Shown piece after piece: positions 14,587 through 45,884 of a stretch of 64,000 nt of DNA. This DNA comes from Raillietiella orientalis (taxonomy: Eukaryota). The notes beneath the pieces are model-generated. The model saw only the letters and a program-made list of their open reading frames with translations, ran no database searches and had not been told where the DNA came from. The position numbers were made by a program, and so were the translations under genes. Location: positions 1 to 64,000 of the forward strand of contig JAYWIR010000053.1 in assembly GCA_036172245.1 (NCBI GenBank), read 5' to 3'. The stretch's first letter is position 1. Each line of letters starts with the position of its first letter.

Positions 14587-16199
14587 TACTGCTGGGAAGA
14601 TTAAGGTGTGGGGGAGCCCTCCTCTTGCGAGGCGGGCAAGATGTCCATGGGGGTTTCGGCCTTCTCAGGCACCTGAGGCACCTGTTCGGCCTCCACCTTC
14701 TTTATCCTCTCCGTGTCCGCGCGTGGGAGTATCTCAAGCGACGGGTCCCGTGAGTTTCCCACGCTCATAGCACCCTCGCTTGCGGAAGCCATCCCTTCCC
14801 CTTCGACGGGGGAGACGAGCTTCCGTGTTTTTGTGGACTTACGTCCAGCCTTCTTGCGCGGTGCCGTAAAAACGGAGGCTGCGTTTCCGGCCTCCACCTC
14901 GGGGTCGGTAGTGGGGAACATCTGAGGGGAGGCCGGACGCCTTACGGCCTTCTTGCCAGCCTTGGAGGGTTCTGGCTGCAACGAAGCTGCCAGCTCCTTC
15001 GTGGCTCGCGCGAAGGCAACGTTATCGATGGTGGTGTTGATGACGGACGCCGCCGCCGGCTCGCTCTCCTTGCTGTTGACAGTGTCAACAGAGGGGAGGT
15101 CGTCGGTAGCGGCGAGTTCTTTCCGGCAGCGTTCGGCAACATCAAGAAAGCGTTCGACAACGACGCTGCGGTCTTTAATAATCGCGCTACCCAGCTCTTT
15201 CTGCTTCTGTTGGTAGGAGTTTTTCTATTCCATCCTCCTCTCCTTTGATTTTTTGGCCGTTGCCACTTGCCACCCAGTCTCCTGACAAGCTTCCTCAACT
15301 TTTTCGGCGTTGGTGGCCGGGGTCTCGGGTGCGGCCTGGATCTTGGGCACGGGTGGCACAGCCTTCGCGGCAGCTTTCGCCGCCAGCCTTTTCTGCAGAA
15401 GCCGGGCGCGTTTTTTAAGGTTTCTCTTGGAAACCACCCGCACTGCTGCTTTTGGGCACACCTCCCTCGTGTGGCCCATTGTGCCGCATACTTGGCACTG
15501 CACATTGGGACACCTCTTTTTGAGGTGGCCCGACGTATTGCAGAAGCCACAGTATTTCGGCTTCCCCACATACCAGAGGTCGACGGTTTCGCCTTCGACC
15601 ACCAGTTTGTGGGGAAGAGTGCAGCCCTCCTGAACGGTCACGCGCGCAGCAGTGAGGCCGTGTTGCAGCCCCGTGTAGTCCTCGAAAGGACTAACTTTCG
15701 TCCACTGCGCGTAGACCGTTCCGAACTGTTCCAAAGCGGCGCGAACCTGTTCTTTGCGGATTCGCGCGGTGACGCCTAACAGGTGGACCACCATGCTGCG
15801 GTCCGCCGTAGTGGGGAGGAGCCTGCGCGTTTCCATCACAACGGGGGTTTTAAGCAGTCGTTGGGCCAGCTCTGCATGTTTGCAGATGACCTCAACGTAC
15901 TGACCCCCACTGCGGATGGTCACAGCGCTGAGCTCCTCCTCTTTCACATCGAGAGCGCGCATGCCCTTCGAGAAGGCGCGCGCGCTCTCTAAAGAATATA
16001 AATTGCCTACCTTGTAGAACAATGAGGGGTTGTACCCCTCCTCTACATAGGCCGACAATTCCGCCGCGGCTGCAGGCGATGGCGCCGACACAACGGCGCT
16101 CCACGCCCGCGCTGCAGCGGGGACCGATTCTGTGGGGGCGGATGCCCCCACCTCCATCGCCTCTGGGGGCGACGTTGCCGCCGCCCTCTGGCTCTCCAT
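14586..16199 (-). pseudogene. A1 ORF1
   Basis: A 324-aa open stretch with CGFCNTSGHLKKRC and CQVCGTMGHTREVC, later stops, ending at the TAATG overlap (14584-14588). Confidence 0.9.
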
Positions 16200-18428: not shown

Positions 18429-18716
18429 ACGCATCAGCGAGGAAAGGCTTAGCATCAGGGCAACGAGCTCCGCCGCCAAGCACTGAAAGACCTCCGGGGG
18501 GAGGCCTTACTCCCCAGGCGCCTTACGCCTCTTAAGGCCCGCTATAGCGGAAGATACTTATTCCGCCTTGAAGGGCCAATCCAATCTAGCGCGTTCCTCC
18601 TCGTCGATAGCAGGTTTACCCTTCGGAAGAAGCAGCAGGGATAGACTGCGTTCCGTGGGCTTCTCCGCGTACAACGAGGAGTAGTAGCCCTTGACTGCGC
18701 GGTGCACGGCGGACGC
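18429..18716 (-). pseudogene. G ORF2 fragment (start of RT region)
   Basis: YYSSLYA...LKRRKAPGE*GLP...LSSLMR, continuous with 3144 across the F TSD. Confidence 0.88.
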
Positions 18717-18824
18717 TCGTTCCTGCAAGGCTTCCATCTGCAGTCGCTCGCGGACTGGGACGACTTCAAGAGCTCAGTCCGCGAATTCTGCGACCAGTTT
18801 CCCCTGAACCGTCTCCCCCCAGGT

Positions 18825-18831
18825 TTCGACG
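18825..18831 (+). repeat. TSD of left D, TTCGACG (second copy TTCGGCG at 30558-30564)
   Basis: 6 of 7 bases match, and the site is the same as for the right-hand D insertions. Confidence 0.75.
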
Positions 18832-19036
18832 TTATCACCCGGGTACGCCCGGGGCGTTTATTAATAAACTTTACATGCGTGGCACAAGGCCCCACCACGG
18901 CCCTAAACACAGGACCTGTCGGGACATCGGAACGCAGCCCAGCGTAGCACTCCCCGACAGCGAAGGGGGATGGGGCAAAGACAAAAAGTAAAATAAAAAG
19001 AAACAAACAAAAAGAAGTTGGAGGGCAGGGAAGGCA

Positions 19037-22000
19037 TCACTGTTCGCTGTGGAGAGGGCCCATCCGTCGAACGGAGCCCTCGAGGTCAGTCTGCATATTC
19101 TCCAGCTGGGGCCATCCGGCAGCTCTTCGCAAGAAGCGTTGGGCATATGGGATGACATCCCTCGCGTGTTCACCCACTCCTTCCTTGTTGGTGTCGCTCC
19201 ATGCCGCCACGATGCCTCGGACGCAGCACAAGGCTGCAAGGGCTGCGGCTGGCTGCAGGGCGTTTTTCACGAAGAGGGGCCGAAGAACGTCTCTAGGGGA
19301 ACTGCCCGTTGGGAGACCAAGGATCGACCCCAACCGTTCCCAAAGGGGACGAAGGGCAGCACAGTCCACAATAAGGTAAGAGAGCGATTCCCGCTCTCCG
19401 CACCTGACACACGCAGGATCCACAACTCCTCTTGTCCAGTGAGAGCGGCGTGCGTTGCAGGGTAAACCCCAATGCAACAACAGAAACGCCGACTCTTTCC
19501 ACTTAAGGGGCAGGATCCTTGATTCCTGAAGAAGCGGGGGCCACTTCAGCACATCCATAGGGATGGCCAGCAGCTCTCCCTATCTTCTTAGTCCTCGCGG
19601 CTGTAAACTCGGGGTCGTGGCGTCTGCCAGTTCTCCTGTTGTCCAGCCGCTGATCAACTTTTCGCGTTCCTCGATGCAGCAGGAGACTTGCCACCTTGGC
19701 GTCCGGCTGCTGTGAAGTGCCCTCTTCAGGAAGGGCAGCGCCGTAGCAAGACAGGTCGTCTCTGCCCACGTGCATCTTGTTGGACTCTCCAGGAGATTCC
19801 GCAGCGTGCAGCGGGCGTAGGGGCTGCATCGAAGACGATTCCACGTCTCGTGGCTTGTCTGGATAACCACTGCCCACGTTCCAATATTTTCTTCCAGCCA
19901 GGCGGGGGAGTTGGCGGGGCAGCAAACCATCCAGCTGTTCTCCTTGGCCAATGTTGCTATGCGCCCGAGCAGTAGGCCGCATCTTCGCATCTTCCGGCCA
20001 CGGCTGAGAAGAAAAGACGCGAGTCCATCGCACCGGGACACACGGCTGGCCAGGAGGCGGGCCGGAGTGAACCAAGGGGTGCACCACATCTTCGCTAGGA
20101 TGGCCAGGGTTCGCCACCGCAGCTGCTTCTCCACGCGCTCCAGCGTCAGGAGGCCAAGACCGCCGTCCCGACGCGGAGCGCACAAGTCCTTCAGTGGGAC
20201 TCGGGGCCTCCCCTTGCTCCAAAGGGCGATACGGAGGAGGTCCTTCGTCCTCTTCTTGGATTCCACGGTGGGAGGGCAAACAAAAAGCAAAGGGCGGAGG
20301 ATGGGGGCCGCGAAGGCGTTCCGAACCGCGGCCCGTTCCGGCAAGTGAAACTTGCCAAGTGAAACTTCCAGGAACGGGCCGATAGCCGTCTCGACTTTTT
20401 GGAGGCAGCTGGACCACGCTTCCGCAGGGCAGTAGTCCCCCAACGGCACACCAAGGTACTTGAAGCACCTCGCAATGGGGATCCCCAGACGGACCCAGTC
20501 CTGCTGCCCTGCCCACGCCGCACCTATTGGCACAACCGACGACTTCGCCCTGTTAACCTGCAGTCCGGTCCCGCGGCTTAGCAGATCGAAGAAGTCTCCG
20601 ACCGCCTTCGCCGGGGTGGACATTGGCAACAAGAGCAGAAGATCGTCGGCGTACGCTGCTACGGCGGGCGTGCCGGGGCACGAGCTCGGCAAGAGAGCCA
20701 AAGTCACCTTGTGCGTTCTCAGCACTTACTCAAAGTAGGTGCTAAAGAGCAGGGGGCTGAGGCTATCGCCCTGCCTTATGCCCCGCCGAACCGGCACGCC
20801 ATACACCTTCTGTCCACTGAAACAAACGGTAATGATCGCATTCCGCCAGCAAGAGCGCAGGTAGGAAATCAGGGAGGGTGGGAAGCCCATGCGACCCAGG
20901 AGCTCCAAAAGGACTTCCTGGTCTACACAGTCGAACAGGCGTTCGACTGTGTAGACCTGGAAGTGTGGAGATCGACTGCGAGCGCTAGGGCCCTCTTTTC
21001 TGCCCGAGGGTCCCTTCCCAGCCCAGCTGGCGGCCCCAATGTGGGGTTGCCGACTTTCCCTATCCCTTTCTTTTCTCTTCTTTGCAGATGCACCCATGTG
21101 CTTGCGAAGAAGAGGTTGGCATCCATACTTCGCCCAGGAACCGCATAAGTCTGCTCCGGGCTAATTACGGATTCTGCCACCTGCCCCAGACGCGAAGCTT
21201 ATAGCCCTGCTATCAACTTGGTGACCGTATTCACGATCGTGATCGGACGCCAGTTCTTTAAATTCCTGAGGTCTCCCCCGTTAGGAAGGAGCCTCACTCT
21301 CGCTGACCGAAACGAGGCCGGAACATCGCCCTCGTCACGGATCAGCCTGATCAGCTTAAGCAGCAGGGGTGCCAGCACTTCCGCGAAGCTCTGAAAAAAC
21401 TCCGCGGGCAAGCCGTCTTCCCCTGGAGCTTTACGCCTCTTCAGCCTTTTGATACCGGCGAGAATTTCGCCTGTGGTAAAAGGCTCGTCGAGGCTTTCTA
21501 TCTCCTCCTCCCCTATTGCCTGGGCGCCATCCGGAAGCAAGCGCCGAGAGGCGTTTCGATCCTATGTCTCCATGGCGTAAAGGGAGGAATAGAAACTCCG
21601 CACGAGATGCCGTACCGACGCCGGGGACGAACATTCCCGGCCATGGTCGTCCAGCAAGCTGGCCGACCCGGATTGCCAGGCTTGGCGTTCGGCCCCGGCG
21701 CGGTACTCGGCCAGGCGACGGACATTAGGGGTTCTCTCGTACCTACGAGCCTGTAAATATGCCCGATGGTTGCGAGCACCCTCGCCGAATCCGGGGGGCA
21801 GGCGATCCAGGGGGAACTGCTCACAGAACTCGCGGACCGATTCCTTAAAAAGGTCCCAGTCCTGGAGATTCCGGAGCGTGACACCTCTCAGGTATTCGCG
21901 AAGGTATTCCTTCGCACCTGAGAGTCGCGTCCAGTTCCCCGGAAGACGCCAATCCCTGGATGGCGGTCCCTTGTCACGAGGCCGCATCTCGAAAATTAAC

Positions 22001-22205
22001 CGGGAATGGTCCGACAACGTCGACGCAACCCTGCCCCGTTTGCCGACCCGTGAACACAGGTCAGCGTCGAGGAAGACGTGGTCGATGCTGCGGACCATTC
22101 CCCTCTCACCCGCGAACAAGTTGCGCGCACGCATGGCGGCGCACAACTCGTTCATCGCTTTCACTTGTGTTTCCGGCTCACCTGTTAGCAGGCGGAGATT
22201 GAAAT
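19037..22205 (-). pseudogene. Left D ORF2, from the FN of GDFN to the stop
   Basis: SIDH, SDH, WRPITIVN, QGDSLSP, YADD and CVRC finger, with stops. Confidence 0.93.
22197..22205 (-). repeat. TSD of left C, ATTTCAATC (second copy at 28113-28121)
   Basis: Identical 9-mer on both sides. The empty site is visible in D2 at about 57348. Confidence 0.92.
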
Positions 22206-22518
22206 TTATCCCCCGTTTACGCCGGGGCGTTTATTAATAATAATAAACTGGTCAGGGACAATGTCCCCAACCAAGAGAACGACAGAGAACATAGAAAAAT
22301 TACCGGCACGCAGGCCTGGTAAACAAACCGCTCGCAGCGTGGGGGGAATGAGGGGAAACAAACAAAAATCAAAAACTGGAGGGAAGGGTAACGGGTTTTT
22401 GGTTAGGCTCCGTACTCAAGGGGATTCATACGATGAGCACCTAAAATGTTCCGAAGCCTATGCGGACGCGGGTGTAAAAAGAAAATACAAATTTAGTTTA
22501 TGGAGGGTAGGGCAATGA

Positions 22519-25500
22519 TCACCGGGTTGGCCGCTGATGAGGGTGTGTAAACCGGCGGTGTATTGCGGCGAGATTCCTCTTTGTCTCCTCTGTCAAATGA
22601 GGCCATCTTGCGGATGCTCCCATGTAGAAGGATGCTTTGCTGATTACCTCTTGGTGCTGTCCGTTGATTACCAACGCCTGGCAGCCGGAAACTATCGCGC
22701 GTATGCAACCGATGGTTGCAATCCTTGGGCTTAGTGAATGCCCGCTCGGCGTGAAGAATCGTCGCAGCAAGTCTCTTGCGGTGTCCACGGGATGCAATAG
22801 TGCTGTTGCCAGCCTATGCCACAGTCCTTGTAGGACACCGCAGTCCAGAAGTAGGTGCGGAATCGACTCCGTCGATCCGCACCGAACGCAGTTCGCAGAC
22901 GCAAGTCCCCCGGAGTCACGATTCCAACGCTCGTTGCACTGAAAACCCCAGTGAACGAAAAGCAGCACGGCTTGTTTCCAAGCAAGGGGGAGCAGCGAAC
23001 TGTCCATACACTGTGGAGGGAATACAAGTTCTTCGGGGGTGACAGCAAGTTCTTCTGCCCACCGGAGGAGTCCCTTTGCAGTAACACGAGGAGTGGCGGC
23101 GTCCGCCAACTCACTTGTCTTCCAGGTGCCAAGAAGTTTGGTTCTTCCCGCTATCGTGCAGGAAACCTCCCACCTCGCCGGTTGGTAACTGTCGTTTCGT
23201 GCTCTGAGGGCAGACAGCGCTGCGGCAAGAGGCGTGGCCGCCAGGGTAGAAAACTTCACCTCGTCCTGCATTACTTCTTCCAAGGATCGTGGAAAAAATT
23301 GGCGCAGGGGGCGAAGATCTTCAGGGCGTATTCCTTGGAACGCCGCCCAGGATTCAACAGACTCCTGCCGCCAAGCTTCAACGTTCATTGGGCGGCAGGA
23401 GATCCAAGAGTGTGCTTCCAGAAGTGCGGTCAACTGCCGCAATGGAAACCCGAAACCCCGCTTCCTGTATTGAGTGCCCGGCAAAAGCGAGAGAAATCCT
23501 CCGCTGCCGGCGCATCTCCGCAGGAGAATGCGAGCTGGCACACACAGCGATGATGTCCATAGCTGGGCACACAGTGCCAGCAGTCGGAACTGCACCTGCA
23601 GTCCGATTCACTCCATTGTCAGGATACCCAAACCAGCATCCCGACGCGGAGCTGACAAATCTTTAAGGCGGATCCTGGATCTCGCCGGACCCCAGAGAGC
23701 GTTCCTGTGCAGGCGCTTAGCTTGCTGTTTTGCCGCATAGGGTGGGTCCAAAACAAAAAACAGGGGACGGAGGAGGGGGGCCACAAAGGTGTTCCAAATA
23801 GTCGCCCGTTCCTGCAAGGTAAACTTGCCGTTAAAGAACGGGCTGATGGCCAACTCTGCTTTCTGAAGACAGTCCGCCCACGCTTCGGCTGCGCCGAAAG
23901 CGCCCAACGGAACGCCAAGGTACTTAAAGTACCCGCCCGTGGGGATCCCCAGGCGGATCCAGTCGGACTGCCCCTCCCACGACGTACCCACAGGAACCAC
24001 CACGCTTCTCTCTCTGTTCACGCTCACGCCCGCTCCCCGACGAATCAGGACGAAGAAATCCTCGACACTGGACGCCGGGGTGGACATGGGGAGCAGAAGA
24101 AGCAGGTCATCAGCGTAGGCGGCCACGGCAGGCTTTCCCGGGCAGGAGCTTGGCAAGTGAGACAGCGTCAGCCTGTATGCTCTTAGCACCAACTCAAAGA
24201 AGATGCTGAACAGCAACGGGCTTAAGCTGTCGCCCTGTCGGATGCCCCTACGAAAGGGAATACCATACACGCGGCAGCCGCTAAAAGTGATGCAGGTTAG
24301 CGCGTGGCGCCAGCACGCGCGCAAATACAGCAGGAGTTGCGCCGGGAACCCAAGGCGTTCCATAAGCTCCAAAAGCAGCTTCTGGTTTATGCAGTCGAAC
24401 GCCTTGTGGAGATCGACCGCGACCGCCAAGGCACCTGGCGTTCCCTCCTGCCGTCGGCGCCTGTTCTTTTTGCCTGCGGCAGTGACTTTCGCAGCAGCCT
24501 GGCTTTGCTGCGCCACAACTTCCTGCAGCTGCATCCATGTACGCGCGAAAAGGATGTTCACCTCCATGGGTCGTCCCGGAACCGCGTAGGTTTGTTCCGG
24601 GCTCACCACAGATTCCGCGATTCTTCCTAACCGCGCTACCCACAGCTTGGAAAACAACTTGACGTCCGAGTTCACCAAGGTGATCGGACGCCAGTTGTTA
24701 AGTTGGCGCAAGTCTCCGCCTTCCGGCAGGAGACGCACCTTCGCTGAGCGGAAGGAATCAGGAAAATTCCCGGATTCACTCATCAGCGTCGCGAGTTTCA
24801 GCATCAAGGGAATGAGCTCCACTGCAAAGCACTGATAAAACTCTGCAGGGAGCCCATCCTCGCCTGGCGCCTTGCGTCTCTTCAGCCCAGCGATGGCGGA
24901 CGAAAATTCATGCGCCCCGAAGGGCTCGTCGAGACGTTCGCGTTCCTCCTCGCCGACAACCCGAGCATCCTGAGACAGCAGTATCTCAGAAAGAATATCC
25001 TCCGTCGGGGATTCCGCGTAGAGCGAGGAGTTGTAGCGTCTCACAATGCGGCGAACTTCGGCTGGAGCCGAACATTCCTGGCCCTTGTCGTCCAACAGGC
25101 ATGCTGCTCCGGACTGCCAGACCTGGCGCTCGGCCCTCGCCTTGTACTCTGCGAGACGCCCGACATCGGCGCGTCTCGAAAACGTGCGGGCCTGCAGAAA
25201 GTCTCTACTGTTGGCCACGCCCTCTCCGAAACCGCGTGGAAGCCGGTGCAAGGGGAATTGGCAGCAGAACTCGCGGACAGATCTTTTGAGATCGTCCCAG
25301 TCCGCAAGTTCTTGAATAGCAAAGCCTCGAAGGTATCCACGTAGATGCTCCGTAGCCTCCGGTTGGCTAAGTCAATCCGCCTGCATCCTCCAGTTTTGCA
25401 ACGGAGGCCCCCTGCCTGGCGGAAGAATCTCAAACTTCAACCTGTGGTGGTCAGAAAGCCTAGTCAACAATCTTCCTCTCCTACCTACATGCGAATGCAG

Positions 25501-26112
25501 ATTTTCATCGAGGAAAATGTGATCGAGCGATCTTTTCATTCCAGGTTCGCTGACCATCAAGTTGGCGGCGTGCACGGACGCGCACTTCTCGATGGAGAGC
25601 GCGCGCTCACTCGGCCGGCTCCAATCGTCGGAGAGCAGGCGGACGTTGAAGTCCCCAGCAACGAGGTGCGCCACTTGGAAACCGGAGTTGTTGAGCCAGT
25701 GGCTCTGCACCTCACCAATGAAAGCTACTCTTTCTTCGAGGTAGCGATAGCCACTCGGCGCGTAGACGTTCGTAACGACGAGATCGATGGACTCGGAACT
25801 CTTCATGACAAGCTGGCCTATCCGTCCGTCGTCATCGAAACGAACACTACGCACCGCTTCCGCCATTTTTCCTCTTACGAGGAACGCGACGCCGCACGTG
25901 TGTGCGCCGCCGCACCGCCAATGTAGCGTTCCGCCTGCGCGCTCCTCGATTTCGGCTGCCTGCTCGTCGGAGATTACGTGAATCTCCTGCAGGAGCGCGA
26001 GGTCGACGGGGCGCAGGGCGTTGGCTACTAATCGCCTCTTCTCGTCGTTCTGTAGTCCGTTCACGTTCCAACACGTTACGGACAGACGACGAGAAGACGC
26101 GATTCCCCGCAT
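22519..26112 (-). pseudogene. Left C ORF2 (endonuclease, RT, zinc finger), one frame with premature stops at 25372 and 23608
   Basis: CWNVNG, LQEIH, NVYAP, AGDFN, LDH, SDH, DLHKAFD, YADD and CVRC...PHLLLDC. Confidence 0.94.
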
Positions 26113-28034
26113 TACTGCTGGGAAGGTGGCAGCTTTTTGCTCGCTTTATGCGGCGAGCAGACGGCGAGCAGCACGACTGGCTGGAGGGGACGGTCGCCAC
26201 CGTCCTCTGTCGTGCTGCATGCATGTAATGCCTCCACGCTAGGCTGAACCCCGTCGGGTTTCGTGGAGACTTCGCGTTGCTTCGCGGCGAGCGTTGCCTG
26301 GCTGCCTACTCTTGATCGGCGCGCACACGCTTTTGAACGAGTTGTCCTCGTCTCGGTGATCGGAACGGCATCCATTTCGGAGTCCGACCGGCGCATGTTC
26401 GATAGGGTTTCGGCCTTCCGCGAAGCAGTGACAGGTTCTGCTGGATTGACAGCTGTCCTGTTTTCGTTTTCCGTCACCAGAGCATAGCTTTTGGTGACGG
26501 CTGCTTTCCCGGCGCGCGCGTTTTCAGCGTGCTCACGCGCAGTTGCACGAGGGACCTTTGCTGAAGTCTTCTTTATTTCATTACGGTTCCTCACTCCGCG
26601 TGGCACCGTAAATGGAGATTGTGCTCCATGGCCATCTTTGAAGCCATCCGCGTCTTTGGACGGGAGCACTTTCGATGGCTCCGACACGCTCGTCATGGAC
26701 GCTGCTTTCGGAAGGGCTTTTAATCCCTTCGTTGGCATGGCATCCGCGCCAGTCGAGAGCTTGCTCTCCGACTGCGACCGCGTGAGATTTTTCTCCGCTT
26801 TCGCGGTGTTGGATCGCGACGCGGATTTTTTTTTGCCGACTTTCGAAGTCGACACGGCACAACCCTTCTTACCCGATTTGGGCTTTTCAGCCACTGCAGG
26901 AGGTACAGGAATGGATCTGACGGTACTGGAAGTGTCCTTACCGCCGTTGTCCATTGGCGTCCCCGCCGGTTGCTCGAACTCCGAGAGAGCCGGGCGTGCT
27001 TGGGAAGGACAGCTATTGCGCCTAGGGGGAATTACCATTGCCCCGGATTCCCCGCACCCTTTCTTTTGCGGCTTTCCTGCCGCAAGAGGGGGTGCGCAGG
27101 GCTTCGCGTGCGAGGTTTCCTGCTGCTTTGGGGCGACATTCCGCCTCGCGTTTTTACCGAATTTCTGCCGTGGGGTCTCCAGGTTTTTCGCAGATTTTTT
27201 CTTTTTATCCGCGCTTTGTTTTCTAGGATGGAGCTTCGCCGCTGACTTTTTTCGCAAAAGATCCGGGCAATTTTTCAATTGGTGCCCGGATAGTTTGCAA
27301 TAACGGCATTTTCCAGAGGGGCATTTATCCAAACAATGCTCCTCCTTCCCGCATTGCTCGCACGTTTCTACTTTGCCCACGAACCACTGGTGAACGACCG
27401 TGTCTTTCACCTGTAGTTTGGTGGGCAGCAGACGGCGGTCCGGCATTGTAAGCTGGACTCCAGCGACTCCGCTGTGTATGGACGGGAAGTCCTTGAGGTT
27501 GCTACGCACCCTCCACAGCGCATGGACCGTGGCGAATTTCGCCAACGCGTTCCGAATATCAGTATCGGAGATTTCCGACTCGATGTCGAAAATCTCCACC
27601 ACAAATGAGTCGTCCATGGCGGCCGAGAAGACCTTCTGGCCACGGATCGACAACGGGGTGCGCAGCAAGCGTTGCACAAGTGCAGCGTCTTTGCAACGCA
27701 CCTTGAAATAGCCCATGTCTTTTACGGGCATAATGGCGAGAAGGTCCTCCTCCCGCACGCCAACACGGGTCAGTTCATCGTTGAACTGATTCCTTTCGCG
27801 CGCAGAAAGAAAACCATTCACCTTATATCGGTGAGCAGGTCGATAGCCTTGGGCTACGTATGCCCGCAACTCCGACTCGTCGAGTGGTTTTCCTTTGACG
27901 GCTGCTGTGGCAGCAACGTCAGCAAATCTCCTATCCATTGGCGAGAAAGACGAAGTGGAGGCGGCCGTCGGTTCCGCGATTGCAGATCCGGATTCTGTTC
28001 CTCCAACTTCAGTAGCTTTGGGTTGGGTCGACAT
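26112..28034 (-). CDS. Left C ORF1, open (about 640 aa): RRM-like core, two CCHC knuckles, long basic Ser/Ala/Lys-rich tail
   Basis: Uninterrupted ORF with CEQCGKEEHCLDKC and CRYCKLSGHQLKNC; its stop overlaps the ORF2 ATG. Confidence 0.88.
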   Translation of the reverse strand: MSTQPKATEVGGTESGSAIAEPTAASTSSFSPMDRRFADVAATAAVKGKPLDESELRAYVAQGYRPAHRYKVNGFLSARERNQFNDELTRVGVREEDLLAIMPVKDMGYFKVRCKDAALVQRLLRTPLSIRGQKVFSAAMDDSFVVEIFDIESEISDTDIRNALAKFATVHALWRVRSNLKDFPSIHSGVAGVQLTMPDRRLLPTKLQVKDTVVHQWFVGKVETCEQCGKEEHCLDKCPSGKCRYCKLSGHQLKNCPDLLRKKSAAKLHPRKQSADKKKKSAKNLETPRQKFGKNARRNVAPKQQETSHAKPCAPPLAAGKPQKKGCGESGAMVIPPRRNSCPSQARPALSEFEQPAGTPMDNGGKDTSSTVRSIPVPPAVAEKPKSGKKGCAVSTSKVGKKKSASRSNTAKAEKNLTRSQSESKLSTGADAMPTKGLKALPKAASMTSVSEPSKVLPSKDADGFKDGHGAQSPFTVPRGVRNRNEIKKTSAKVPRATAREHAENARAGKAAVTKSYALVTENENRTAVNPAEPVTASRKAETLSNMRRSDSEMDAVPITETRTTRSKACARRSRVGSQATLAAKQREVSTKPDGVQPSVEALHACSTTEDGGDRPLQPVVLLAVCSPHKASKKLPPSQQ

Positions 28035-28112
28035 CGTCGTCAAAATGTACGACGCCAAGATGAAGCGGATGAAAGCACGGAGACGAGAGCGAAGAAAAAC
28101 ACGTCCGCACTC

Positions 28113-28581
28113 GATTGAAATCTCCCGCTTTCAGGTGAGGCTTCCGCCCGTTCCTGTCCGCCAGCCAGTCGCGCTTCAGGGTTTCCAGCAGCCTGGTGCG
28201 GTCGCGGTAACCCTGTTTGCCGCTGGGTCCATACACGTTTGTGACGATTAGGTCGATCGAGTCGGACCAGCAGAGAATCAGCTGATCGATCCGACCGTCG
28301 TCATCAAACCGCACGATCTTTACGGCAGCGTCGATGGCCGGCTTCACGAAGAACGCGACCCCGCAGGTGTTGCGGAGGCCGCATCGCCAATACAGCCGAC
28401 CCCCCGCGATCGTCTCGATTTCCTGGGCGTCTGCCGCGGTGATCACGTGGATCTACTGCAGCAGCGCCAGGTCGAGCTCACGCAGAGTGTCGGCTGTATC
28501 TCGCCTGTTGCCGTCGTCGCGCAGCCCGTTGACGTTCCAACAGGCCGCGCGAATCCGACGGCGACTGGCGAGCCCAGGTGT
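28113..28581 (-). pseudogene. Left D ORF2 endonuclease N-terminal half
   Basis: CWNVNG, LQ*IH, NVYGP and AGDFN. Confidence 0.9.
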
Positions 28582-30452
28582 TAGTCCAGGGAAAACGGCG
28601 ATGCGGCGTCCGCCACCTGCTGGGGCGGGACGCTAGGTAGAGGGGGAGGAAGGACAGGTACTGAAGGCACCTTTTCCTCCTCCTCCATCGGTGCCGGCGC
28701 GTCGAGCGGGTCACCCTCAGGTGGGGTCGCGCCTACCTGTTGGCCCTCCTCCATGGGGGCGGGCTGTTCAGGCTCGGCGACTGCAGGGAGGACTTCGCCT
28801 TCTTGCTCACCCTTCTCTATGGGGGTTGCCGGCTCGACGGCTTCCGAGCGTGGGAGTTCAACCTCCGGCATTCCCACGCTACCGCTGGCTTCCTGCTTCT
28901 ACTCCTCGCTGGTGGAGGGGAGGAGCCTCCTTGGTTTCTGGGACTTGCGTCCCGACTTCCTATGGGTGCCTCCGAGGAGGAGGATCCGCTTCCGGCTTAC
29001 AGGTCGCACTCACCTGCGGGGGCCTTCTTCGTCGGGCCGACCTGCGTACGCCCTTGCACGACGGGGTTTCGCGCTCGGCGAGCGTTGCTGCGAGCTCCTC
29101 CGCCGCTTTCTCGAAGGCCGCGTCTTCGCCAGCGGCGACCGTTTCCGCGGGCTGCTCCGCGACCTTATCGAGCGCGGCGTCATCGTTGACGGCGAACGTT
29201 GCCGCGGGCTCCTCCGCGACTTTATCGAGCGCGGCGTCCTGGCTGTCGGCGCGCGAGTCTCGCGTCTCACCCTCTAAACGTAGATTGGGCTCGTCCACGC
29301 GAGTATTCATCGCGTCCGCATCAGCTGTTCCGCGAACATTGCCGCGGGCGGACTCGGCAGGAACGGCTAAGCGTTCCAGTGCCACCGAGCATTCGCGGAG
29401 TTTTTTTTTTGAAAGCGGCGCGGCTTTTTTCTTGTTGCCGGCAGTTTTCTTCTCCGAATTTTCTTCTATCATCACTTTCTTTTTTTTCTCTTTTCTGGCC
29501 TGAACCAGCTGCCAACCCTCCTCCATTCCCGCGTCCACGGGAGCTATTTGCTCCGACGTCTGTACGGGAGGAAGGGAGGCTGGCAGTTGGGAACGGCCAT
29601 TTTCGCGAGCTGGTTTTTCCACCAGCTTTCCACGTTTTCCCTGCGCCTTTTTGGCGGCAGGGGGCACCGGGGTGGGGCGCTTGGGGCACACGCGCCGAAC
29701 GTGACCCTTTTCGCCGCATAGGTGGCACACAATGTTCGGGCACCTTTTTCGGAGATGCCTACTGCATTGCAGTAGCCACAAAATTAGCGTTTCCCCACGT
29801 ACCAGAGGTCCACCGCTTCTTGGCAGACCTCCAGCTTATGGGGAAGCGCACCACCCTTTTTTACCGTGATTGGCGCCGCAGCTTGACCTCCGAAAAGGCT
29901 ATTGTAGCCTCGGAAAATCGTGGACTTCGGCCACAACGCGTGCACTTCTCCGTGCTCTTGTAGCTGTTCTCGAACCGCTGACCTCGTCATGCGACTTGAG
30001 ATCCCAGTGAGATGGACCACCACCGAGCGGTCCATCGTTATCGGTAAGATCTTCCGACCATCAACGATCAGCGGGTCGGTGATCAGGTGTCGGGCCAAGG
30101 TGATATCCTTGCATACCACCTCGACCCGCTGCCCGCCGCTGAGGACGCAGAGGCCGTCGAGATCTTTTTCAAAAATATTGGCGTCCTGCAGCGCCTTCGT
30201 AAAGGCGCGTGCAGTTCGCCCATCGAAAAGGTTGCCTACCTTGTAGACTAGCGAGGGTTTATACCCCGCTTTCTTGTAGGCTTCCATCTCGGCCATGGCT
30301 TCCACGCTTGGCGCGGCCACCATGGCGCTCCATGACCTCGGCGTCGCCGGGGACGATTCCGGGGCGGATGCCCCTGATGCAGTAGGCTGTGGGGACGAAC
30401 AAGCTTCCATCACGCCTACTTCTATCGCGGCGTCCTCTGGCAACGCCGCCAT
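28581..30452 (-). pseudogene. Left D ORF1
   Basis: MAALPED..., DLWYVGK, CHLCGEKGHVRRVC and PMEE repeats, with frameshifts. Confidence 0.9.
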
Positions 30453-32752
30453 CGGACACCGACGATGTGCACGCAGAAATCACTTAATAAGAAAAAACAC
30501 TCGCTTTGCCACGCAGGCGGAGTGCAGGAAAAGCACGTCCGCTCTCCACAGCGGGGATTCGGCGAAGGGCTGAGGAACGACCGGGCATACCACCACGCCC
30601 GTCTTTACTCTAGGACTTCCGACGTTTGACGCCTGGCGGAGTATAAAGCTGGGGCTGAAGCGACAGACCTGGCAATCGGGGCCGGCCAGCTTGCTGGACG
30701 CCTCAAGAATGCTCAGCTCCGGCGAGAATAAACCGCATCCTGCGGGACTATTACTCCTCCTTGTACGTGCGTTGAACAACAGAGCGCGCCGTGGCGCAGC
30801 GCTTGCTGCTGCAAGGCGCCCCCGCGCTCCAGGAGGATCAGGCACATCAACTCGAGGAGCCTTTCTCGATGGCAAAGATCGTCTCCGCCATCGGAAAGCT
30901 CCGAAAGAGGAAAGCACCAGGGGAAGACGGTCTGCCCGCGGAGTTCTACCAAGGCTTCGTGGCGGAGCTGGCCCCCCTGGTGCATCGGCTATGCATGCTT
31001 ATCCGAGAACAAGGGGACGTCCCCAAATCGTTCCGGTCAGATACAGTACGTCTTCTGCTGAAAGGAGGAGACAATCGCAACGTAGGCAACTGGCGTCCCA
31101 TCACAGTAGTGAATGCGGATGCGAAGTTGCTTGCCAAGCTTTAAGCTGAGCGACTGGGACGGGTGGCGTAATCCGTGGTCAGTCCGGGGCAGACATACGC
31201 TGTTCCCGGACGAAGCATGGTGGCCAACCTGTTCCTCGCCAGTACATGGTGGCAGTTGCAACAAAGCAAAGACCAGGGAGGTCAAGAGAATCCTGCATTC
31301 TACTCTGTCCAGGGAGAGGACGCCCTTCATGGTAGAGCCGCGCCCGCTGCCCTTGAGGTCGCAGTCGATCTGCGTAAAGCATTCGATTGCGTCGACCAGG
31401 AACTGCTTCTGGAGCTCCTGGAACGCTAGGGATTCCCGGCCGTCTTCCGGGCTTACCTGCGCTCCTGCTGGCGCTTCGCTCTAATCAACATCTCTTTTAG
31501 CGGCCGGCACGTGTACGGCGTGCCGGTTCGGCGTGGCATTAGGCAGGGTGACAGTCTGAGCCCCTTGCTCTTCAGCATCTACTTCGAGCAGGTGCTGAGG
31601 GCATACCGTGAGACTCTGGCAACCCTGCCAAGCTCGTGTCCCGGCACGCCTGCCGTGTCGTCCTACGCCGACGAACTTCTGCTCCTGCTTCCCGGGTCCA
31701 TCCCGGCGTCAGCGCTCGAAGATTTCTTTGAGTTGCTGCGCCGCGGGACGGGCCTCGAGGTGAACAGAGAGAAATCTTCCATCGTTCCAACATCACCACA
31801 ACTTTTCAACAATACGGCGTGGGCCGGACGGCCGGACTGGATCCGCTTGGGGATCCCCACGGGCAGGTGCTTCAAGTACCTTTGCGTTTTGTTGGGGGAC
31901 TTCTGCGTTGCAGAAGCCTGGTCCGACCGTCTCCATAAGGTGGAGTTGGCGATGGGCCCGTTCCGGAACGGCAAGTTTTACTTGCTGGAGCGGGCCGCGG
32001 TGTGGAACGCGTTCGCGGCCCCCCTCCTTCGCCCCTTACTTTTTGTTTGCCTAGCCCGTCCCATCATACAGAGACCGACCAAAGCCCTCTTGAGGACTGC
32101 CCTTTGGGGCACAGCGAGGTCGCGAGTCCGATTGAAAGACTTGTGCGCTCCACGCAGGGATGGTGGCTTGGGCCTCCTTACGTTGGAGCGCATCCAACTA
32201 CAGACAACACTTCGGAAGTTAGTTCTTGCGACTAGCTTATGGATGACGCCATGGAGCGATATGGCACGGCTCCTCGCCAGAAGAGCGATCGGCTGCGAAG
32301 GATTGTCCTCGATCCTCGTGGCCTACTAGCACAGCCTCTCCAACTGTGGCCCCGATTTGCGCCAGATGGTCGCCCTTATGAGGGAGAATACCTGGATCTC
32401 CTGCATCCCCGTGAACTGCACTGCCTGGTTTCAGCAGTCAGCTTCCGCGCGGTTTAAGATCAACGGCACGAGCGAGGCGGAATACAACTGCTTACGACGA
32501 GGACCGTACGCTCGCCAGCCGCTGCAGGATATTATCTACACGCCCCGGAAGTTTCTGTGGGCTTCTTTCCGCCCCCTTGCCCCCGTTCTCTCCTTCCTTA
32601 AAAACACTAAAAGCACTAACGAGCGGGCATCGTGTGAAGTGTCCTGCCTCATTCGAGGTAGGAAAAAACCTTTAAAGGCGTTGACGACTCGGAATCACAT
32701 GAAGACGGAAAGGAATCACGCTTGAGGAGCAACACAGAACACGTCAGTGCAC

Positions 32753-33212
32753 CGTTGTCGTCGAGCGTATGCTCGACGACGTCGCCTTTGAACGAGCGGC
32801 GGTGGAGCTTGCTTTGTCCTTGCAGCGTCCGCTTAAATCCGCGAAAAAGGCCGTAAGGCGTTCGACCTCGAACAAGAATGCGGAGATTCCGAACTCTGAC
32901 GCAGAGGCGGAAAACACAGCCTGCGGCATCGCGGCCTCCCTTTCGAAGGCCAATCGCACGAACAAGGCTACCCGCAAGATTGTTCTGTTTCTAGAAAAGG
33001 TAGAGATAATTGAGGGAAGCGAGCGTGCCAATAAAGTAAGGAACTCCGGGGACTCCCCTCGAGAGGTAACCTCACGCTGCGTCCTCGGAGGGAGGGAAAG
33101 TGTAGAGTCTGTGCCCCAGAAGCTTCAAGTGCCTAAGATGGCTGCGGTCGCCTTACTCGTCCTTCCCACCTGTCCGTTGACAGGTGGTCCAACGCCAGGT
33201 TCCCAGTCTTAA
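32753..33212 (+). pseudogene. A2 ORF1 C-terminal part
   Basis: Open to the TAATG at 33210-33214; homologous to the A1 ORF1 tail. Confidence 0.85.
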
Positions 33213-36200
33213 TGCCGGGAATCGCCTCTCGCCGCCGTCTGCGAATTGCTTGTTGGAACGTCAACGGGCTATGCAACGACGGCAAGAGACGAGACGTGGG
33301 CTCCACCCTGGCATCGTTCGACCTGGTGCTGCTGCAAGAGATCCACGTGATCTCCGCAGATCAAGCAACGGTGATCGGGCGTACCTCGGGTGGACGGCTA
33401 CTGTGGATTTGCGGCACTGTTAAATCTTGCGGTGTCGCGTTCCTGCTCCGTCCAGCTGTCGAGGCTGCGGCAAAGGGCGTACGGTTCGATAGTGCCGGTC
33501 CCGTCGGGCACTTGACCATCAGGAGGTTGGACTCCATCGATCTGGTCATTACATACGGGTACGCCCCCAGCAACAGCGACGCGCTAGAGGCAAAGGCAAG
33601 GAGAGATTTCTTCCTTACCCCGAGGCGCGAATATCTCGACGATGCGAAAGTGGGCAAATCGCACCTAATCGCAGTTGACTTTAACCTGCGCCTGCTGTCG
33701 GGTGCGTCCGACACACTTCGGAACCGCGTCAACGAGCTGTGCGCAGAGATGCACACGCGAAACTTGTTCGCGGGAGATCCGTAAATTGCCGACAGCATAG
33801 ATCACGTGTTTCTTGATCAGCGCCTATGCTCACACGTGGGCAGGCGCGGCAAGTTACCGTCGGAACTGTCGGACCATGACCGCATCGTACTCGAGGTGCG
33901 CCCACGCGATAAGGGTTCCGCCGTCATCTACGTGGCGCTTACCGGGAAACTGACTGAAACTTCCGGAAGCCGCAAAGCTTCTCCGCGGATTCATACGAGC
34001 TTTCAGCTTGCAGATGCCTCAGGACTTAGACCGCTTCAAGCGCTCGGTCCGGAATTTTGGTGACGAGTTCCCTATGAACCTCCAGCCTGCCGGGTTTGGT
34101 GAAAGCGTGCGTAACGAGACACGGTATTTATAATCTCGATGTTACGCGCAAACATTAGACGTACGCAGGCTAGCCGAATACCGTGCGAAAGCCGAGAGGC
34201 AGGCGTGGCCATACGAAAAGGCCAGCTTACTGGACGATCAGGGTTCGAGGCACTTGGCCCCCGCCCAGGTAAAGGGCTTATTAAAAAAATTCTACTCCTC
34301 CCTGTACGCGCGCGCTGCACCGGAACGGGATGTCTCGCGACTTCTTCTACCGGAGGGCGCTCCGGCGATCGGGGAGGAAGATAGAAAGGCCCTCGACGAT
34401 GAGCGAGATCATTTTGTCCATAGGAAAGTACAAGAGGTGGAAGGCTCCAGGGGAGGACGGCCTGCCAGCGGAGTTTTCTCAATGTTTCGAGGCAGAGCTC
34501 ACTCCTTTGGTGAAGAAACTCACCTTGCTGTTCCGCGAAACGTGCGACGTCCCTGCCTCGTTTCGTTCGGCAAAGGTGCGTCTCCTTCCTAAGGGAGCAG
34601 ACCTTCGGAGCATGAGAAACTGGCGGCCGATTACCGTGATCAACGCGGATGCCAAGTTGCTGGCGAAATTGTGGGCTGAACGCCTGGGGCGGTTAGCGGA
34701 AAGTTTCATTTGCCCGGAGGAGACATATGCTGTTCCCGGGCGGAGCATGGATGCCAACCTGTTCCTCGCCAGCACCTTTCTCGCGCTCCAACAGGAAAGG
34801 GTCAGGATGGGCAACCGGACTTCCGGAATGTTTGCCGCTAGGAAACGGGAAGCTTGGGTGGAGGAGGGAGCCCTCGCAGTCGCAGTCGATTTGTATAAAG
34901 CTTTCGACTGTGTAAACCAGAGGCTCCTCCTGGAGCTCCTGGAACGCTTGGGCTTCCCGGTCTCTTTGCTGACCTACCTGCTATCCTGCTGGCGCGACGC
35001 GCTCATCCAGATCTTTTTCAGTGGACACACCGTGCACGGCGTACCGGTGCAACGCGGCATACGGCAGGGAGACAGCCTGAGTCCCATGCTCTTCAGTACA
35101 TAATTGGATTTGGTTCTGAGAGCGTACAGGGAAACTCTAGCGCACCTGCCGCGCGACTATCCTGGTACGCCCGTGGTGTCAACATATGCGAACGACCTAC
35201 TGCTGCTGTTTCCTATGTCCACCCGGGCTTCGACGGTCGAGGAGTTCTTCGACCTGCTAAGTCGGGGAACCGGGCTTGAGGTGAACAGCGCGAAGTCGTC
35301 CGTCATGCCAATCGGTGCAGCGTGGGCAAGGCAGCCATATGTGGTCCGTTTAAGGATCCCCACGGTACGGTACTTCAAGTACCTCCGTGTACCGATGGCT
35401 GATTATCTCCCTTCGGATGCGTGTTCCAGCTGCCTTCAAAAGGTAGAGACGGCGATCGGTCCGTTCCAAGGCCGCAGGTTTCTCCTGACGGAAAGGGCCG
35501 CGGTGTGGAACGCATTCGCGGCGCCCCTCCTCCGTTCCCTGCTTTTTGTTTGTCCCCCACCACAGAGAATAAAGAGCGGACGAAGGACCTCCTAAGGATT
35601 GCCCTGTGGGGTAATGGGAGAGCCCGAGTCCGACTTTAGGACTTGAGCACTCCGCGTCGGGACGGCGGTCTCGGCCTCTTGACGCTAGAGCGGCTAGAGC
35701 TCCAGCTCCAGTTTCGGTTACTCGCCCTAAAGGCGTAATATTGGAATAACAGTTGGTGCGAGCCCGCACGCCTACTCGTCGAGCAGGCTACAGGGAAGGT
35801 GGGACTGTCATCCTTCCTTGCGCTCCGTCGACGCCGCCGTGTCGGTGACTGCGGGTTGCAGCTACGGAGAGTGGCTGACCTGATTAGGAAGAACGCAGGA
35901 TGGCTCTGCTGTCGCCCCGTTAACGGACCTGCATGGCTGCAAGAGACGGTGCAGACGTGGGCAAGGAGCAAGCAGCAACCCAAGGAGGGCAGAGACAATT
36001 CTTCGCACGTAATGACCGACTCCCGGAGAGTCAGGCGAGAGAACCCCCAAAAACCAGCAGAGTCAGGCGAGAGAACCCCCAAAAACAAGCGTGGGCAAGA
36101 ACAACTCTTCTTGCTGCAATGCTGTTTCCGCTCTCGGAACACTTAAACGGCAACACTGCTGCGAAATTGGATGTTTACCTCAAAATCTGCGGTACGGAGA

Positions 36201-36814
36201 AAAAGATCGGGGAATGGAAAACGGGAATTCTCTGTTATACCGCGGCCCGGACTACCACCTCTATTGGACTTTAGCGCTAAGGCGAGCTGCTAAATGTTTC
36301 CCGGGAACAATTAAAGTGGCCGCCGGTGCTGATGAACACTTCCAGCCTCCCATTAAAATGGCAGGCGTCGTCGCTATTGTTGCTGCATTGGGGACTCCCC
36401 TGCTACGCCCGCCGACACCATTGGACCTGGAAAGGGGTGAGCCTTGATTGTGCGAGGTGTGGAGAACGGGAGTCCCTCACTCACCTCCTTTTGGATTGTG
36501 TGGCTCTTTCGACCCTTTGTAACCGTTTTGCCTCGGCAATCTGTATCTACTGAGGCAACCCCAGAGACGCAATTAGATCCCTCTTTGTTTGCGACGTTCT
36601 TCGACCCTCGGCCTCCTTAGCAACTCTGTGCTGCTTTCTCGGGATCGTCGCTGCATGTAGCAAAGCAACGGGAGGACCTCGCGATAATGGTGTTGTCCAG
36701 TGCGCAGCCGAGTTTATGCGGACAGCGACAGGAGGGACCCATCAGGATTCAGACATCCAAAAACAGCTTGCCGGCATCCTGCAAAGGATGTAACGGCCCC
36801 ACAGCACACTGTGA
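33212..36814 (+). pseudogene. A2 ORF2, heavily degraded
   Basis: MPGIASRRRLRIACWNVNG, LQEIH, VDFN, SDH, DLYKAFD, QGDSLSP, YAND and CARC...HLLLDC. Confidence 0.92.
36027..36090 (+). repeat. 32-bp tandem duplication inside A2 ORF2
   Basis: agagtcaggcgagagaacccccaaaaac(c/a)agc occurs twice. Confidence 0.9.
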
Positions 36815-37030
36815 TCCCTTCCCGTGTCCCCCAGATCTTGATTTTATATAAATTCTTTTTTGTTTTATTTTGTCCTTGGCCCCTCTGCTGTCGTGTTGCA
36901 CCGTACCGGATTACGAACCGGTGACCCGGCAGGCTTAATTTCGTATACTTGTGCGTGGCCGGACCATCTGGTCAGCCACCAACGTTTGTTTTATTGAAAA
37001 GAATAAACGCCTGGCGCAACCGGGTGAAAA

Positions 37031-37890
37031 ACGTGCTTTCGAACGGCCATGGTCCATAGTTGCAGGCGGAGGTGCTCCGCAGTCACCGCATTTCTCAACC
37101 AGTCGGCCGGAAGCCTTCAGACGTGCGTCGAAGGGACCTTGCCAGGTAGGAGAGGCTCACACACCAGCCTGTAGTGGTCGGAAAGCTCGGACGGCACGGG
37201 ACCTCTTCTACCCACACAACAATGCAGGTAATTGTCGAGGAACACATAGTCCGGCAAAGCACGCATCCCAGGATCGTCGACCTGGGAATTCGAGGCGTGC
37301 ACGGACGCGCACACCTCGTTCACCAGTTGTTTCTCTCGGCGACGGTGAGACTTCTCGGAAAACGCGTGGCCGTTGAAGTCTTAAGCTACGAGGTGAGCCA
37401 CGTCGGGGCCAAAGTTGCAGAGCCAGCGGTCGCGCAGTCTCTCGAGAAACTCCAGTTTCTCGGAGCGACGCGCGGAACCGCTCGGCGCGTACACGTTCGT
37501 GACGACAAGGTTGATCGATTCGGTCCACTTGAGAACAATTGGGCACACACTACCTTTCTCTTCGAAACATACACTCCGCACTGCTCCCGCCACCCTGCCT
37601 TGGACAAGGAATGCGACTCCGCAGGTATACTGGTAGCCTGACTTCCAATAAAGCGTCTTGCCTGCGCGAACTTACAGATCGGCCGCTTGCTGCTCGGAGA
37701 GTGCGTGAATCTCCTGCAGCAGGGCCAGATCGAAGTCGCGCAAGACGTTGGCAACCAATCGCCACTTCTCGTTGTCTCGCAGTGACGTCACCATCAGCTG
37801 ACGACAATGCCGCTCCGGCATTGCCAGGGAAGGACGTCTGCGCGCCGATCGATGAAGCCGCTTCCATTGCGCCTGCGCCCACTGTCGTTG
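37031..37890 (-). mobile_element. Element I fragment (end of ORF1 plus endonuclease); outermost visible host
   Basis: LALLQEIH, TNVYAPSG, HLVA*DFN, SELSDH and RLPADWL. Bounded by the A2 3' end and the H 5' end. Confidence 0.85.
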
Positions 37891-43362: not shown

Positions 43363-43467
43363 TCCCCGCTGTGTAGAGCGGACGTGCTTTTCCTGCGCTC
43401 CGCCTGCGTGGCAAAGCGAGTGTTTTTTCTTATTAAGTGATTTGTGCGTGAACATCGTCGGTGTCCG

Positions 43468-45806: not shown

Positions 45807-45884
45807 GAGTGCGGACGTGTTTTTCTTCGCTCTCGTCTCCGTGCTTTCATCCGCTTCATCTTTGCGTCGTACATTTTGACGACG

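Follow-up and report, generated by a model that had tools for sequence, protein, structure and literature searches.

The first 64,000 nucleotides of contig JAYWIR010000053.1 from Raillietiella orientalis (GenBank assembly GCA_036172245.1), here called the window, are a cluster of GC-rich, L1-type retrotransposons without long terminal repeats (non-LTR retrotransposons), which use fixed sequences in one another as insertion sites. Within this cluster a long interspersed nuclear element (LINE) of one family, D, is interrupted by a LINE of a second family, C, and this nest, written D[C], is present twice. Copy A lies at 18832-30557 on the minus strand (11,726 nt) and copy B at 43363-55025 on the plus strand (11,663 nt), each inside a further LINE, J in the case of A and E2 in the case of B. 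The site-specific nesting rule itself is the more general and better-supported result. As for the pair, the history ranked first, at somewhat less than even confidence, is that one read-through D[C] RNA was mobilised in trans.

The Composite Pair

In a global alignment of the two copies, 11,217 of 11,663 aligned bases are identical (96.2%). The differences comprise 446 mismatches and seven indels, which cover 63 columns and have the longer allele in A at every one. A repeat finder returns the two arms as a chain of inverted matches that are 93-98% complementary, and the spacer between them is 12,805 nt long (30558-43362). The original prediction had described two near-identical copies that extend up to the exact termini of D and form a large inverted repeat with a spacer of about 12.8 kb, and it was correct on these points. 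Directly beyond the 3' end of D the identity is ~50%, and beyond the 5' end it is ~76% and nearly gap-free for 1.65 kb.

Copy A is composed of a D 5' part (28113-30557, minus strand) with the 5' untranslated region (UTR), open reading frame 1 (ORF1) and ORF2 amino acids 1-170; a nested C of 5,907 nt (22206-28112, minus strand) between ATTTCAATC at 28121-28113 and 22205-22197; and a D 3' part (18832-22205, minus strand) with ORF2 from amino acid 171, the 3' UTR, a terminal hairpin and the TGATAA end. Copy B has the same parts on the plus strand, namely a D 5' part (43363-45806), a nested C of 5,879 nt (45807-51685) between ATTTCAATC (45798-45806) and ATTGCAATC (51686-51694), and a D 3' part (51686-55025). 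C is thus inserted at the identical nucleotide in both.

Three lesions of D are common to A and B. The first is a GAG to TAG change in LLQEIH (A 28455-28453, B 45464-45466), the second a TGG (Trp) to TAA change (A 21201-21199, B 52689-52691) and the third a 1-nt deletion in the first zinc knuckle of ORF1 (after B 44162 and A 29758). All of them, together with the C insertion, had been claimed as common to the pair and were confirmed, and they indicate that the two copies shared sequence after D had been inactivated. Additionally, D has private lesions in each copy, namely an insertion of 23 nt and stop codons at 385 and 656 in A, and 1-nt deletions at codons 315 and 674 in B.

It is very improbable that the pair is an artefact of assembly in which one real D[C] was duplicated or repeats were mis-joined. 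The region does consist almost wholly of nested repeats, and the sole public run with sequence (X1, 0.35 of sampled words; no RNA run was listed as sharing the sequence) gave short contigs, none of which spans a whole copy. Of the contigs placed on the window, 116 came from X1, one from a second run and none from a third, and they showed no joints. However, false duplications are normally near-identical, whereas A and B differ by the 446 bases and seven indels, have their own stops and frameshifts, and sit in different flanks with a proper target-site duplication at each.

Element Class and 3' Ends

The window has ~58% G+C throughout and is filled by fragments and full copies of non-LTR retrotransposons. 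A Pfam scan of its 79 stop-to-stop frames of at least 180 amino acids matched RVT_1 in 11, Exo_endo_phos in 4 and zf-CCHC in 1. Both Exo_endo_phos and RVT_1 were matched by the 804-amino-acid frame at 56838-59249, which belongs to an uninterrupted D copy, D2. The best solved structure for this frame is that of human LINE-1 ORF2p (E 1.9e-48), with R2-type proteins at 4.6e-14 or weaker. D is an L1-superfamily non-LTR retrotransposon of the apurinic/apyrimidinic endonuclease (APE) type, in which the endonuclease is followed by the reverse transcriptase (RT) in one ORF2. L1 and Tx1 lineages have an ORF1 upstream of ORF2, often with CCHC zinc knuckles. A CX2CX4HX4C motif is present in the ORF1 of A, B and D2, and the ORF1 of C (662-672 amino acids) has no Pfam match.

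The 3' ends of the elements are alike across families. All eight that were compared, from four families, have AATAAA, a GC hairpin of 5-7 bp and TGA(T/A)AA. None of the eight has a poly(A) tail, and all stop at TGATAA or TGAAAA after the hairpin. The retention of this shared end in all eight fits recognition of the RNA 3' end. The hairpin is conserved and its structure putative, with a compensatory change in 0 of 7 pairs. The target-site duplications are 7 bp for D and 9 bp for C.

Searches of public protein collections with the LINE proteins of the window gave 13 + 5 matches, which were distant or unnamed, the closest being one fragment at 71%; an Atlas protein search gave only generic endonuclease/RT clusters. 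In a metagenome scan the C/D 3' junction pattern had 0 matches, and the 3'-end motif was found at six loci, all of them chance matches with no tblastn match to LINE proteins.

Target Site of D and Its Hosts

The host of copy A, LINE J, is on the plus strand. Its upstream piece (18714-18831) covers ORF2 from about amino acid 273 to 310, and its downstream piece (30558-32229) continues from about amino acid 311 and includes the RT domain. A tblastn search with the ORF2 of D2 places amino acids 273-310 at 18714-18827, followed by copy A in antisense and then by about amino acid 311 from 30558, and the junction sequence gives the exact limits. The upstream piece ends in one copy of the target-site duplication (18825-18831, CGTCGAA in D orientation), and the downstream piece opens with the other (30558-64, the complement of D's CGCCGAA on the plus strand).

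The host of copy B, LINE E2, is on the minus strand. One piece (41705-43362) covers ORF2 amino acids 803 down to about 309, with the duplication copy CGCCGAA at 43356-43362 adjoining the 5' end of B; a second piece (60698-61113) covers amino acids 311 down to 171. The corresponding tblastn matches are amino acids 803-309 at 41884-43365 and 311-171 at 60692-61114. The order on this side is E2, copy B, D2, E2 again and then C2, a third C copy (61114-64000, minus strand) that interrupts E2 at a ATTTCAATC site and is represented by its 3' 2.9 kb, cut by the window end. The original prediction took the 3' flank of B to be E2. Instead, B is followed by a single duplication copy, CGCCGAA (55026-55032, plus strand), and then in head-to-tail tandem by D2 (55033-60690, plus strand), with a further CGCCGAA at 60691-60697, and E2 resumes only after D2.

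The junctions of A, B and D2 agree with one another. At the 5' junction, host sequence ending in TTCGCCGAA is followed by the D start, TCCC, and at the 3' junction GGTGATAA is followed by CG(C/T)CGAA and then host. Specifically, D terminates in CCCGGGTGATAA, then CGCCGAA (CGTCGAA in A), then host. The window has only two exact matches to the 9-mer TTCGCCGAA, and each is a D 5' junction. On the host sense strand the target consists of the Phe-Gly-Glu (FGE) codons at about amino acids 309-311 of ORF2. D has entered this same 7-bp site, CGCCGAA, at least three times (A, B and D2), in the same orientation, antisense to the host ORF2, and with a constant 7-bp duplication. A and B each have their own duplication, and B and D2 have the one CGCCGAA between them.

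The two hosts are homologous. Over J 30558-32229 and E2 43362-41705 they are colinear and share 1,253 of 1,653 aligned bases (75.8%), and the 5' flanks of A and B are thus related. Over 1,315 aligned nt, the differences between J and E2 are distributed 87/85/146 among the codon positions (p ~1e-5). This third-position excess indicates that J and E2 are separate lineages or insertions of related families. The idea of two different hosts is therefore right as to lineage, but the hosts are colinear relatives that carry D at the same codons. An old inverted duplication of the whole J[D[C]] was rejected, because the differences between J and E2 show this excess. Moreover, J and E2 already diverge no more than 15 nt from the 5' junction and, on the 3' side, at the very first base past the junction; divergence this close to the insertion weighs against copying at the DNA level with homologous flanks as the primer.

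Target Site and Ancestry of C

C inserts in sense, with a 9-bp duplication, into ATTTCAATC, which lies within the endonuclease codons for Gly-Asp-Phe-Asn (GDFN), presumably a motif conserved across endonucleases of this family. In A and B, C stands between ATTTCAATC and ATT(T/G)CAATC, C2 in E2 ends in GGTGATAA ATTTCAATCTCCG, and the empty site as seen in D2 is GGGAGATTTCAATCTCCG. The same site is used in D (A and B) and in E2, hosts that are 52% identical in protein (E2 against D2 over amino acids 311-171). Three of the four exact C sites in the window are filled; the fourth, in D2 (57345-57356), is perfect yet empty. With D at the same host codons in J and E2, and C at one fixed site, both families are sequence-specific.

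Each family also has its own version of the site that it attacks in others. The homologous codons of C are GGGGACTTCAACGTC and are empty, and the homologous D site within D is CTCGCCGAAT, as against TTCGCCGAA(A/G) in the target, and is empty as well. That each family's own version differs from the attacked sequence and is empty may reflect self-avoidance, on small numbers. The GDFN codons of C itself read GGGGACTTCAAC, compared with GGAGATTTCAAT in the target. The own-site and empty-target positions are 57345-57356, 25645-25656, 48236-48247, 52102-52110, 57765-57773 and 21781-21789.

Loose ends of contigs from run X1 fall at window positions 55026, 51656 and 51687, each represented by only a 30-letter consensus. 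A J-like flank apparently adjoins a 5' end of D2 type, a 3' end of C type has another downstream flank, and the final 30 nt of C, in the same D site, are connected to another 3' UTR. These ends suggest that the same sites have received additional insertions at other places in that genome.

The coding regions of the nested C copies have decayed separately. In the C of copy A, ORF1 is open and ORF2 has two private stops (25374 and 23610). In the C of copy B, ORF1 is also open; the private changes are two deletions, one of 27 nt at 46530 that keeps the frame and one of 1 nt at 48847, and stops at 48020 and 51070. C2 has three private stops and one frameshift. Because no lesion is common to the two nested copies, C was coding-competent at the time that A and B split. 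The proposal that the composite was copied after its inactivation therefore holds for D, which was disabled before the sharing, but not for C, which was then still open.

Over the 2,886 columns that the C copies of A and B have in common with C2, the A copy has 52 private changes and the B copy 37, and C2 differs at 102 sites at which A and B agree. By codon position, the private changes are flat in A (14/13/17) and in B (10/10/8) and biased by selection in C2 (30/15/41). This pattern implies that the C copies of A and B stem from one C variant and have only decayed since, while C2 came from a somewhat different variant. A 3,755-nt contig of run X1, within whose span A and B differ at 47 places, has the letter of A at 18 of 19 listed differences from B and behaves like a consensus of the majority of C copies. 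With its help, the 47 differences are polarised as about 29 changes in A and about 18 in B. Such a consensus cannot reveal a stem common to A and B, since A and B may themselves be the majority. The two nested copies are each other's closest relatives, as expected, among only three C copies compared, a test that lacks power; a neutral stem common to them is not demonstrable, because with C2 as the sole third copy it is inseparable from the branch of C2.

These properties of C bear on a history in which the nest was built twice. D copies would have inserted separately in J and in E2, either as a dead D mobilised in trans or as two live siblings whose lesions were later shared by conversion, and an active C would then have entered each GDFN site independently. 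This history is ranked second and can be put forward only tentatively. It draws on the use by C of one fixed site in hosts as unlike as D and E2, on the filling of three of the four exact sites, D2's being intact but empty, and on the fact that ORF1 and ORF2 of C were open at the A/B split, with all five of their lesions private. The private branches of the two C copies are unequal (81 versus 55 changes), the change points in divergence lie at element junctions, and every process that is needed, including repeated D insertion, repeated C insertion and conversion tracts, is seen independently in the window. On the other hand, building the nest twice takes one more insertion event than copying the composite. 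Both C copies must also stem from a single C variant, given that their differences are flat and those of C2 are selection-biased. Moreover, the divergence of C (3.7%) is close to that of the D termini (4.7-5%), a similarity that a single copying predicts and that two separate C insertions merely allow.

Divergence Along the Copies and Gene Conversion

The comparison of the D and C parts that had been proposed as a check on the composite gave an uneven result. In the A/B alignment, divergence is 1.7% in the D 5' part (42/2,444), 3.7% in C (217/5,879) and 5.6% in the D 3' part (187/3,340). Within the D 5' part, the first 274 nt have 13 mismatches (4.7%), positions 275-623 have none, and positions 275-2444 as a whole have 29 in 2,170 nt (1.3%). 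The tract at 275-2444 differs significantly from the first 274 nt (Fisher p 4e-4) and from C (p 5e-9). It is best read as a later conversion between the inverted arms.

In the D 3' part, copy D2 serves as a third sequence. In an unrooted comparison, A, B and D2 are about equally distant over 51686-54186, and the seemingly private sites are distributed 10/10/32 by codon position in A (p 9e-5) and are flat in B (22/15/23). J, E2 and two further LINEs of the window then served as outgroups to root the comparison; agreement of three of the four was required, and 86 of the 145 variable sites were polarised. After rooting, the private derived changes in the RT region number 23 in A, 25 in B and 19 in D2, and all are flat by codon position. 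Derived bases at the 86 sites are common to A and B at 10 (including the TAA), to B and D2 at 8 (7 of them at third positions) and to A and D2 at 1. A and B are sisters on the backbone.

Between 52203 and 53566, sites of the A+B and B+D2 kinds form five alternating blocks, compared with ~9.9 runs expected by chance. Copy B is a mosaic with D2, with D2-type tracts at ~52325-52493 and ~52808-52985, which shows that gene conversion has acted. These tracts hold lineage-type differences and hardly any of the decay of D2, which points to an early exchange with D2, the neighbour in tandem, or with another copy like it. The idea that D2 converted B as a whole was rejected, since B-D2 mismatches never fall below 13 per 250 nt except in the final partial window; the exchange was confined to short tracts. 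A star-like history, in which a single evolving master gave rise to A, B and D2, was also dropped, because rooting gave flat, equal private branches together with derived sites common to A and B.

The sisterhood of A and B extends to the ends of D. Over the last ~840 nt, A and B have 43 mismatches between them, as against 87-103 to D2, and over the first 58 nt they have 2, while D2 is ~24% different there. The 5' third of D2 is only 76-88% like A and B. With the conversion overlays removed, the A-B background is roughly uniform at ~3.7-5%, C having 3.7%, the 5' terminus of D 4.7% and its 3' terminus ~5%.

The substitutions between A and B have a distinctive pattern. Transitions and transversions are about equal in number (217 to 229), CpG is not depleted (observed/expected 0.9-1.1), and adjacent double mismatches are in 2.5-fold excess (47 versus 19.0 expected). 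Several stops arose through two adjacent changes (TGG to TAA, CCG to TAG and TTG to TAA). The pattern suggests frequent multi-nucleotide mutation or many very short conversion patches.

The evidence for conversion raises the possibility that the pair arose by transfer at the DNA level, D having inserted twice independently, with C and the lesions then passed between the inverted arms by long-tract gene conversion. Such a transfer may have begun with a break made by the C endonuclease at an empty site and repaired from the filled arm, in a homing-like manner. The arms are inverted and only 12.8 kb apart, the tract at D 275-2444 looks like arm-to-arm conversion and holds two of the three common lesions, and B alternates between A-type and D2-type tracts. 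Conversion limited to D homology would also never cross the D termini. Nevertheless, this history is unlikely. The divergence of C (3.7%) compared with that of the homogenised tract (1.3%) implies at least two separate events, one of which must carry 5.9 kb absent from the recipient. In addition, A and B are alike to both termini, while D2, the only C-less D in view, is ~24% different there, and the J and E2 flanks show no co-conversion. Gene conversion, which the original prediction offered as a second route, is thus evident in the internal A/B tract and in the B/D2 mosaic, whereas a long-tract transfer of C is ranked below the RNA route.

History of the Nest

Set against the anatomy, target sites, duplications, common lesions and mosaic pattern observed in the window, the mobilisation in trans of one read-through D[C] RNA remains the first-ranked history. 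A D copy would have decayed in place, acquiring the ORF1 frameshift and the two ORF2 stops, and would then have received a C that was still intact. Transcription would have started at D's own 5' end and continued through the 3' signal of C to the 3' end of D. Proteins supplied by a working D copy would have recognised the D 3' end of this 11.7-kb RNA, and target-primed reverse transcription would have placed the whole of it at the D target in a second, related host LINE. Later, the arms would have exchanged the internal 2.2-kb tract of the D 5' part, and B would have swapped short tracts with D2. What we infer is that C travelled within the RNA, that its 3' signal was read through and that proteins were provided in trans. 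This history explains the sister backbone, the common lesions, the common C variant and the near-uniform background with the fewest insertion events.

Several observations weigh against it. All five stops and frameshifts of the nested C copies are private, and the absence of a lesion common to both leaves no visible interval between the arrival of C and the copying of the nest. The summed private changes of C are unequal, 81 in A versus 55 in B (binomial p 0.03). Divergence is uneven by part, and the support intervals of the two best change points, 45523-45923 and 51048-52278, bracket the element junctions, so that a read-through RNA needs later conversion events in addition. Two of the three common lesions (the ORF1 deletion and the TAG) lie in the homogenised tract at D 275-2444, and a short patch of A/B type at 52626-52691 contains the third (the TAA), so that all three may owe their spread to conversion. 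C is itself site-specific and has filled most of its exact targets, and a second independent insertion would give the same structure. The RNA must also pass the 3' signal of C, which is of the same type as that of D. As a side observation, the backbone leaves an imbalance at 51686-52297 without explanation, where A may have been refreshed from a C-less D copy. In this stretch, the first 600 nt of D past C, differences found only in A number 4 sites and those found only in B ~25, and C upstream tends the opposite way.

The mobilised composite of the original prediction is thus favoured by the common lesions, the separate target-site duplications, the differing flanks and the 10 of 86 derived sites common to A and B, but its architecture is also what site-specific insertion would be expected to give. 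Sequence-specific target-primed reverse transcription yields exact ends and the same C position every time, and such features do not prove movement as a unit. The read-through RNA is accordingly placed first, ahead of independent C insertions, with DNA-level transfer third and an assembly artefact far behind. All three live histories need D as a site-specific inserter and some gene conversion.

Other Features of the Window

A separate LINE family occupies 4773-9775 on the minus strand and is ~25% identical to D and C in ORF2. It has an uninterrupted frame of 1,088 amino acids for endonuclease and RT (4773-8036) and a CCHC-knuckle frame upstream (8978-9775), and, judging from these open frames, may be a recently active element. 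Five matches were found for it in public protein collections, the best at 26% identity, with no close relative among them. Two more LINE families end in AATAAA, a hairpin and TGAAAA at 36981-37030 (plus strand) and 38996-39045 (minus strand), beside LINE fragments. The E2 3' part and an adjoining fragment (38996-40622 versus 40429-42055, minus strand) are 82% alike at an offset of 1,433 nt. The fragment at 38996-40622 looks like a 5'-truncated relative lying head-to-tail behind E2, but the expected junction yielded no 3'-end motif. Two other LINE fragments at the left end of the window share an inverted repeat of 612 nt (91-702 and 15218-15829) with 89% complementarity.

Comparison With Known Systems

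Nested and target-specific LINEs have a classic precedent in the Xenopus composite elements in which Tx1L lies within Tx1D. Human L1 is known for 3' transduction, and some LINEs recognise their own 3' UTR. Like a LINE RNA that is mobilised in trans or carries a transduction, the composite would be a disabled copy at a new site with its own duplication, made from a transcript that passed an internal 3' signal. The difference is that the passenger here would be a whole 5.9-kb LINE inside the carrier rather than flanking DNA, and its travel as RNA is putative. The pair also resembles sequences converted between inverted repeats or tandem copies, in having a bounded internal tract of low divergence and alternating ancestry in the copy with a tandem neighbour. 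In contrast to such arms, A and B are not near-identical overall (96.2%), with 3.7-5.6% divergence outside the tract.

According to the available portions of the reports on them, the Zepp and Zepp-like (ZeppL) L1 clusters of the green algae Coccomyxa, Chlorella and Chlamydomonas "target existing copies" and mark putative centromeres (PMC8226300, PMC3446292, PMC9940879, 10.1101/2025.03.28.645958). One such cluster per chromosome, as a putative centromere, is characteristic of them. The window is like them in architecture, in that GC-rich L1-type LINEs are nested in one another, J and E2 each having received D, and C having entered two D copies as well as E2. However, its insertions are full length, fall at single defined nucleotides and have no poly(A). 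Zepp arrays, as those portions describe them, are mostly made of 5'-truncated 3' ends, whereas A, B, D2 and the C copies of A and B are full length with the same 5' ends. The literature searched held no account of fixed-site or self-targeting Zepp insertion, which is not proof of absence.

In the available text on crocodilian Tx1 families and SINEU-3, copies stand at one short transposon site in Mariner-N4_AMi with a constant duplication, and tandem copies flanking one duplication are taken as sequential insertions (PMC4494074). The window shares with this group a fixed short site inside another transposon and a constant duplication, a likeness of insertion behaviour. It differs in that the targets are coding motifs (GDFN and FGE) of sister LINEs and not a DNA transposon or an RNA gene. 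In the literature searched there were no LINE families each aimed at a fixed codon motif in the ORF2 of its sisters, nor any such nest moving as a unit; the primary Zepp papers lay outside the scope of this search, and such cases may be in print there.

Implications

The window provides a single-nucleotide rule, with one fixed site per family inside the ORF2 of related families, one of these sites encoding GDFN. A tentative picture, which may well not hold, is that L1-type families are each aimed at conserved ORF2 codons of their rivals, C in sense at GDFN and D in antisense at Phe-Gly-Glu, with their own sites differing. Mutual disabling would then build and renew a self-contained, Zepp-type LINE island, possibly a centromere, in which a dead 11.7-kb nest could propagate as one RNA by means of the machinery of its carrier.

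For the annotation of such nests, the lesson is that a composite cannot be assumed to have moved as a unit from its matching architecture, matching junctions and exact ends. In the present case, a single nest may have been copied in full, or the nest may have been assembled on two occasions. If it is true genome-wide, the nesting rule would explain how a LINE island is assembled without spread into genes. It would also constitute a clear case of retrotransposons parasitising one another, with endonuclease targets that are testable.

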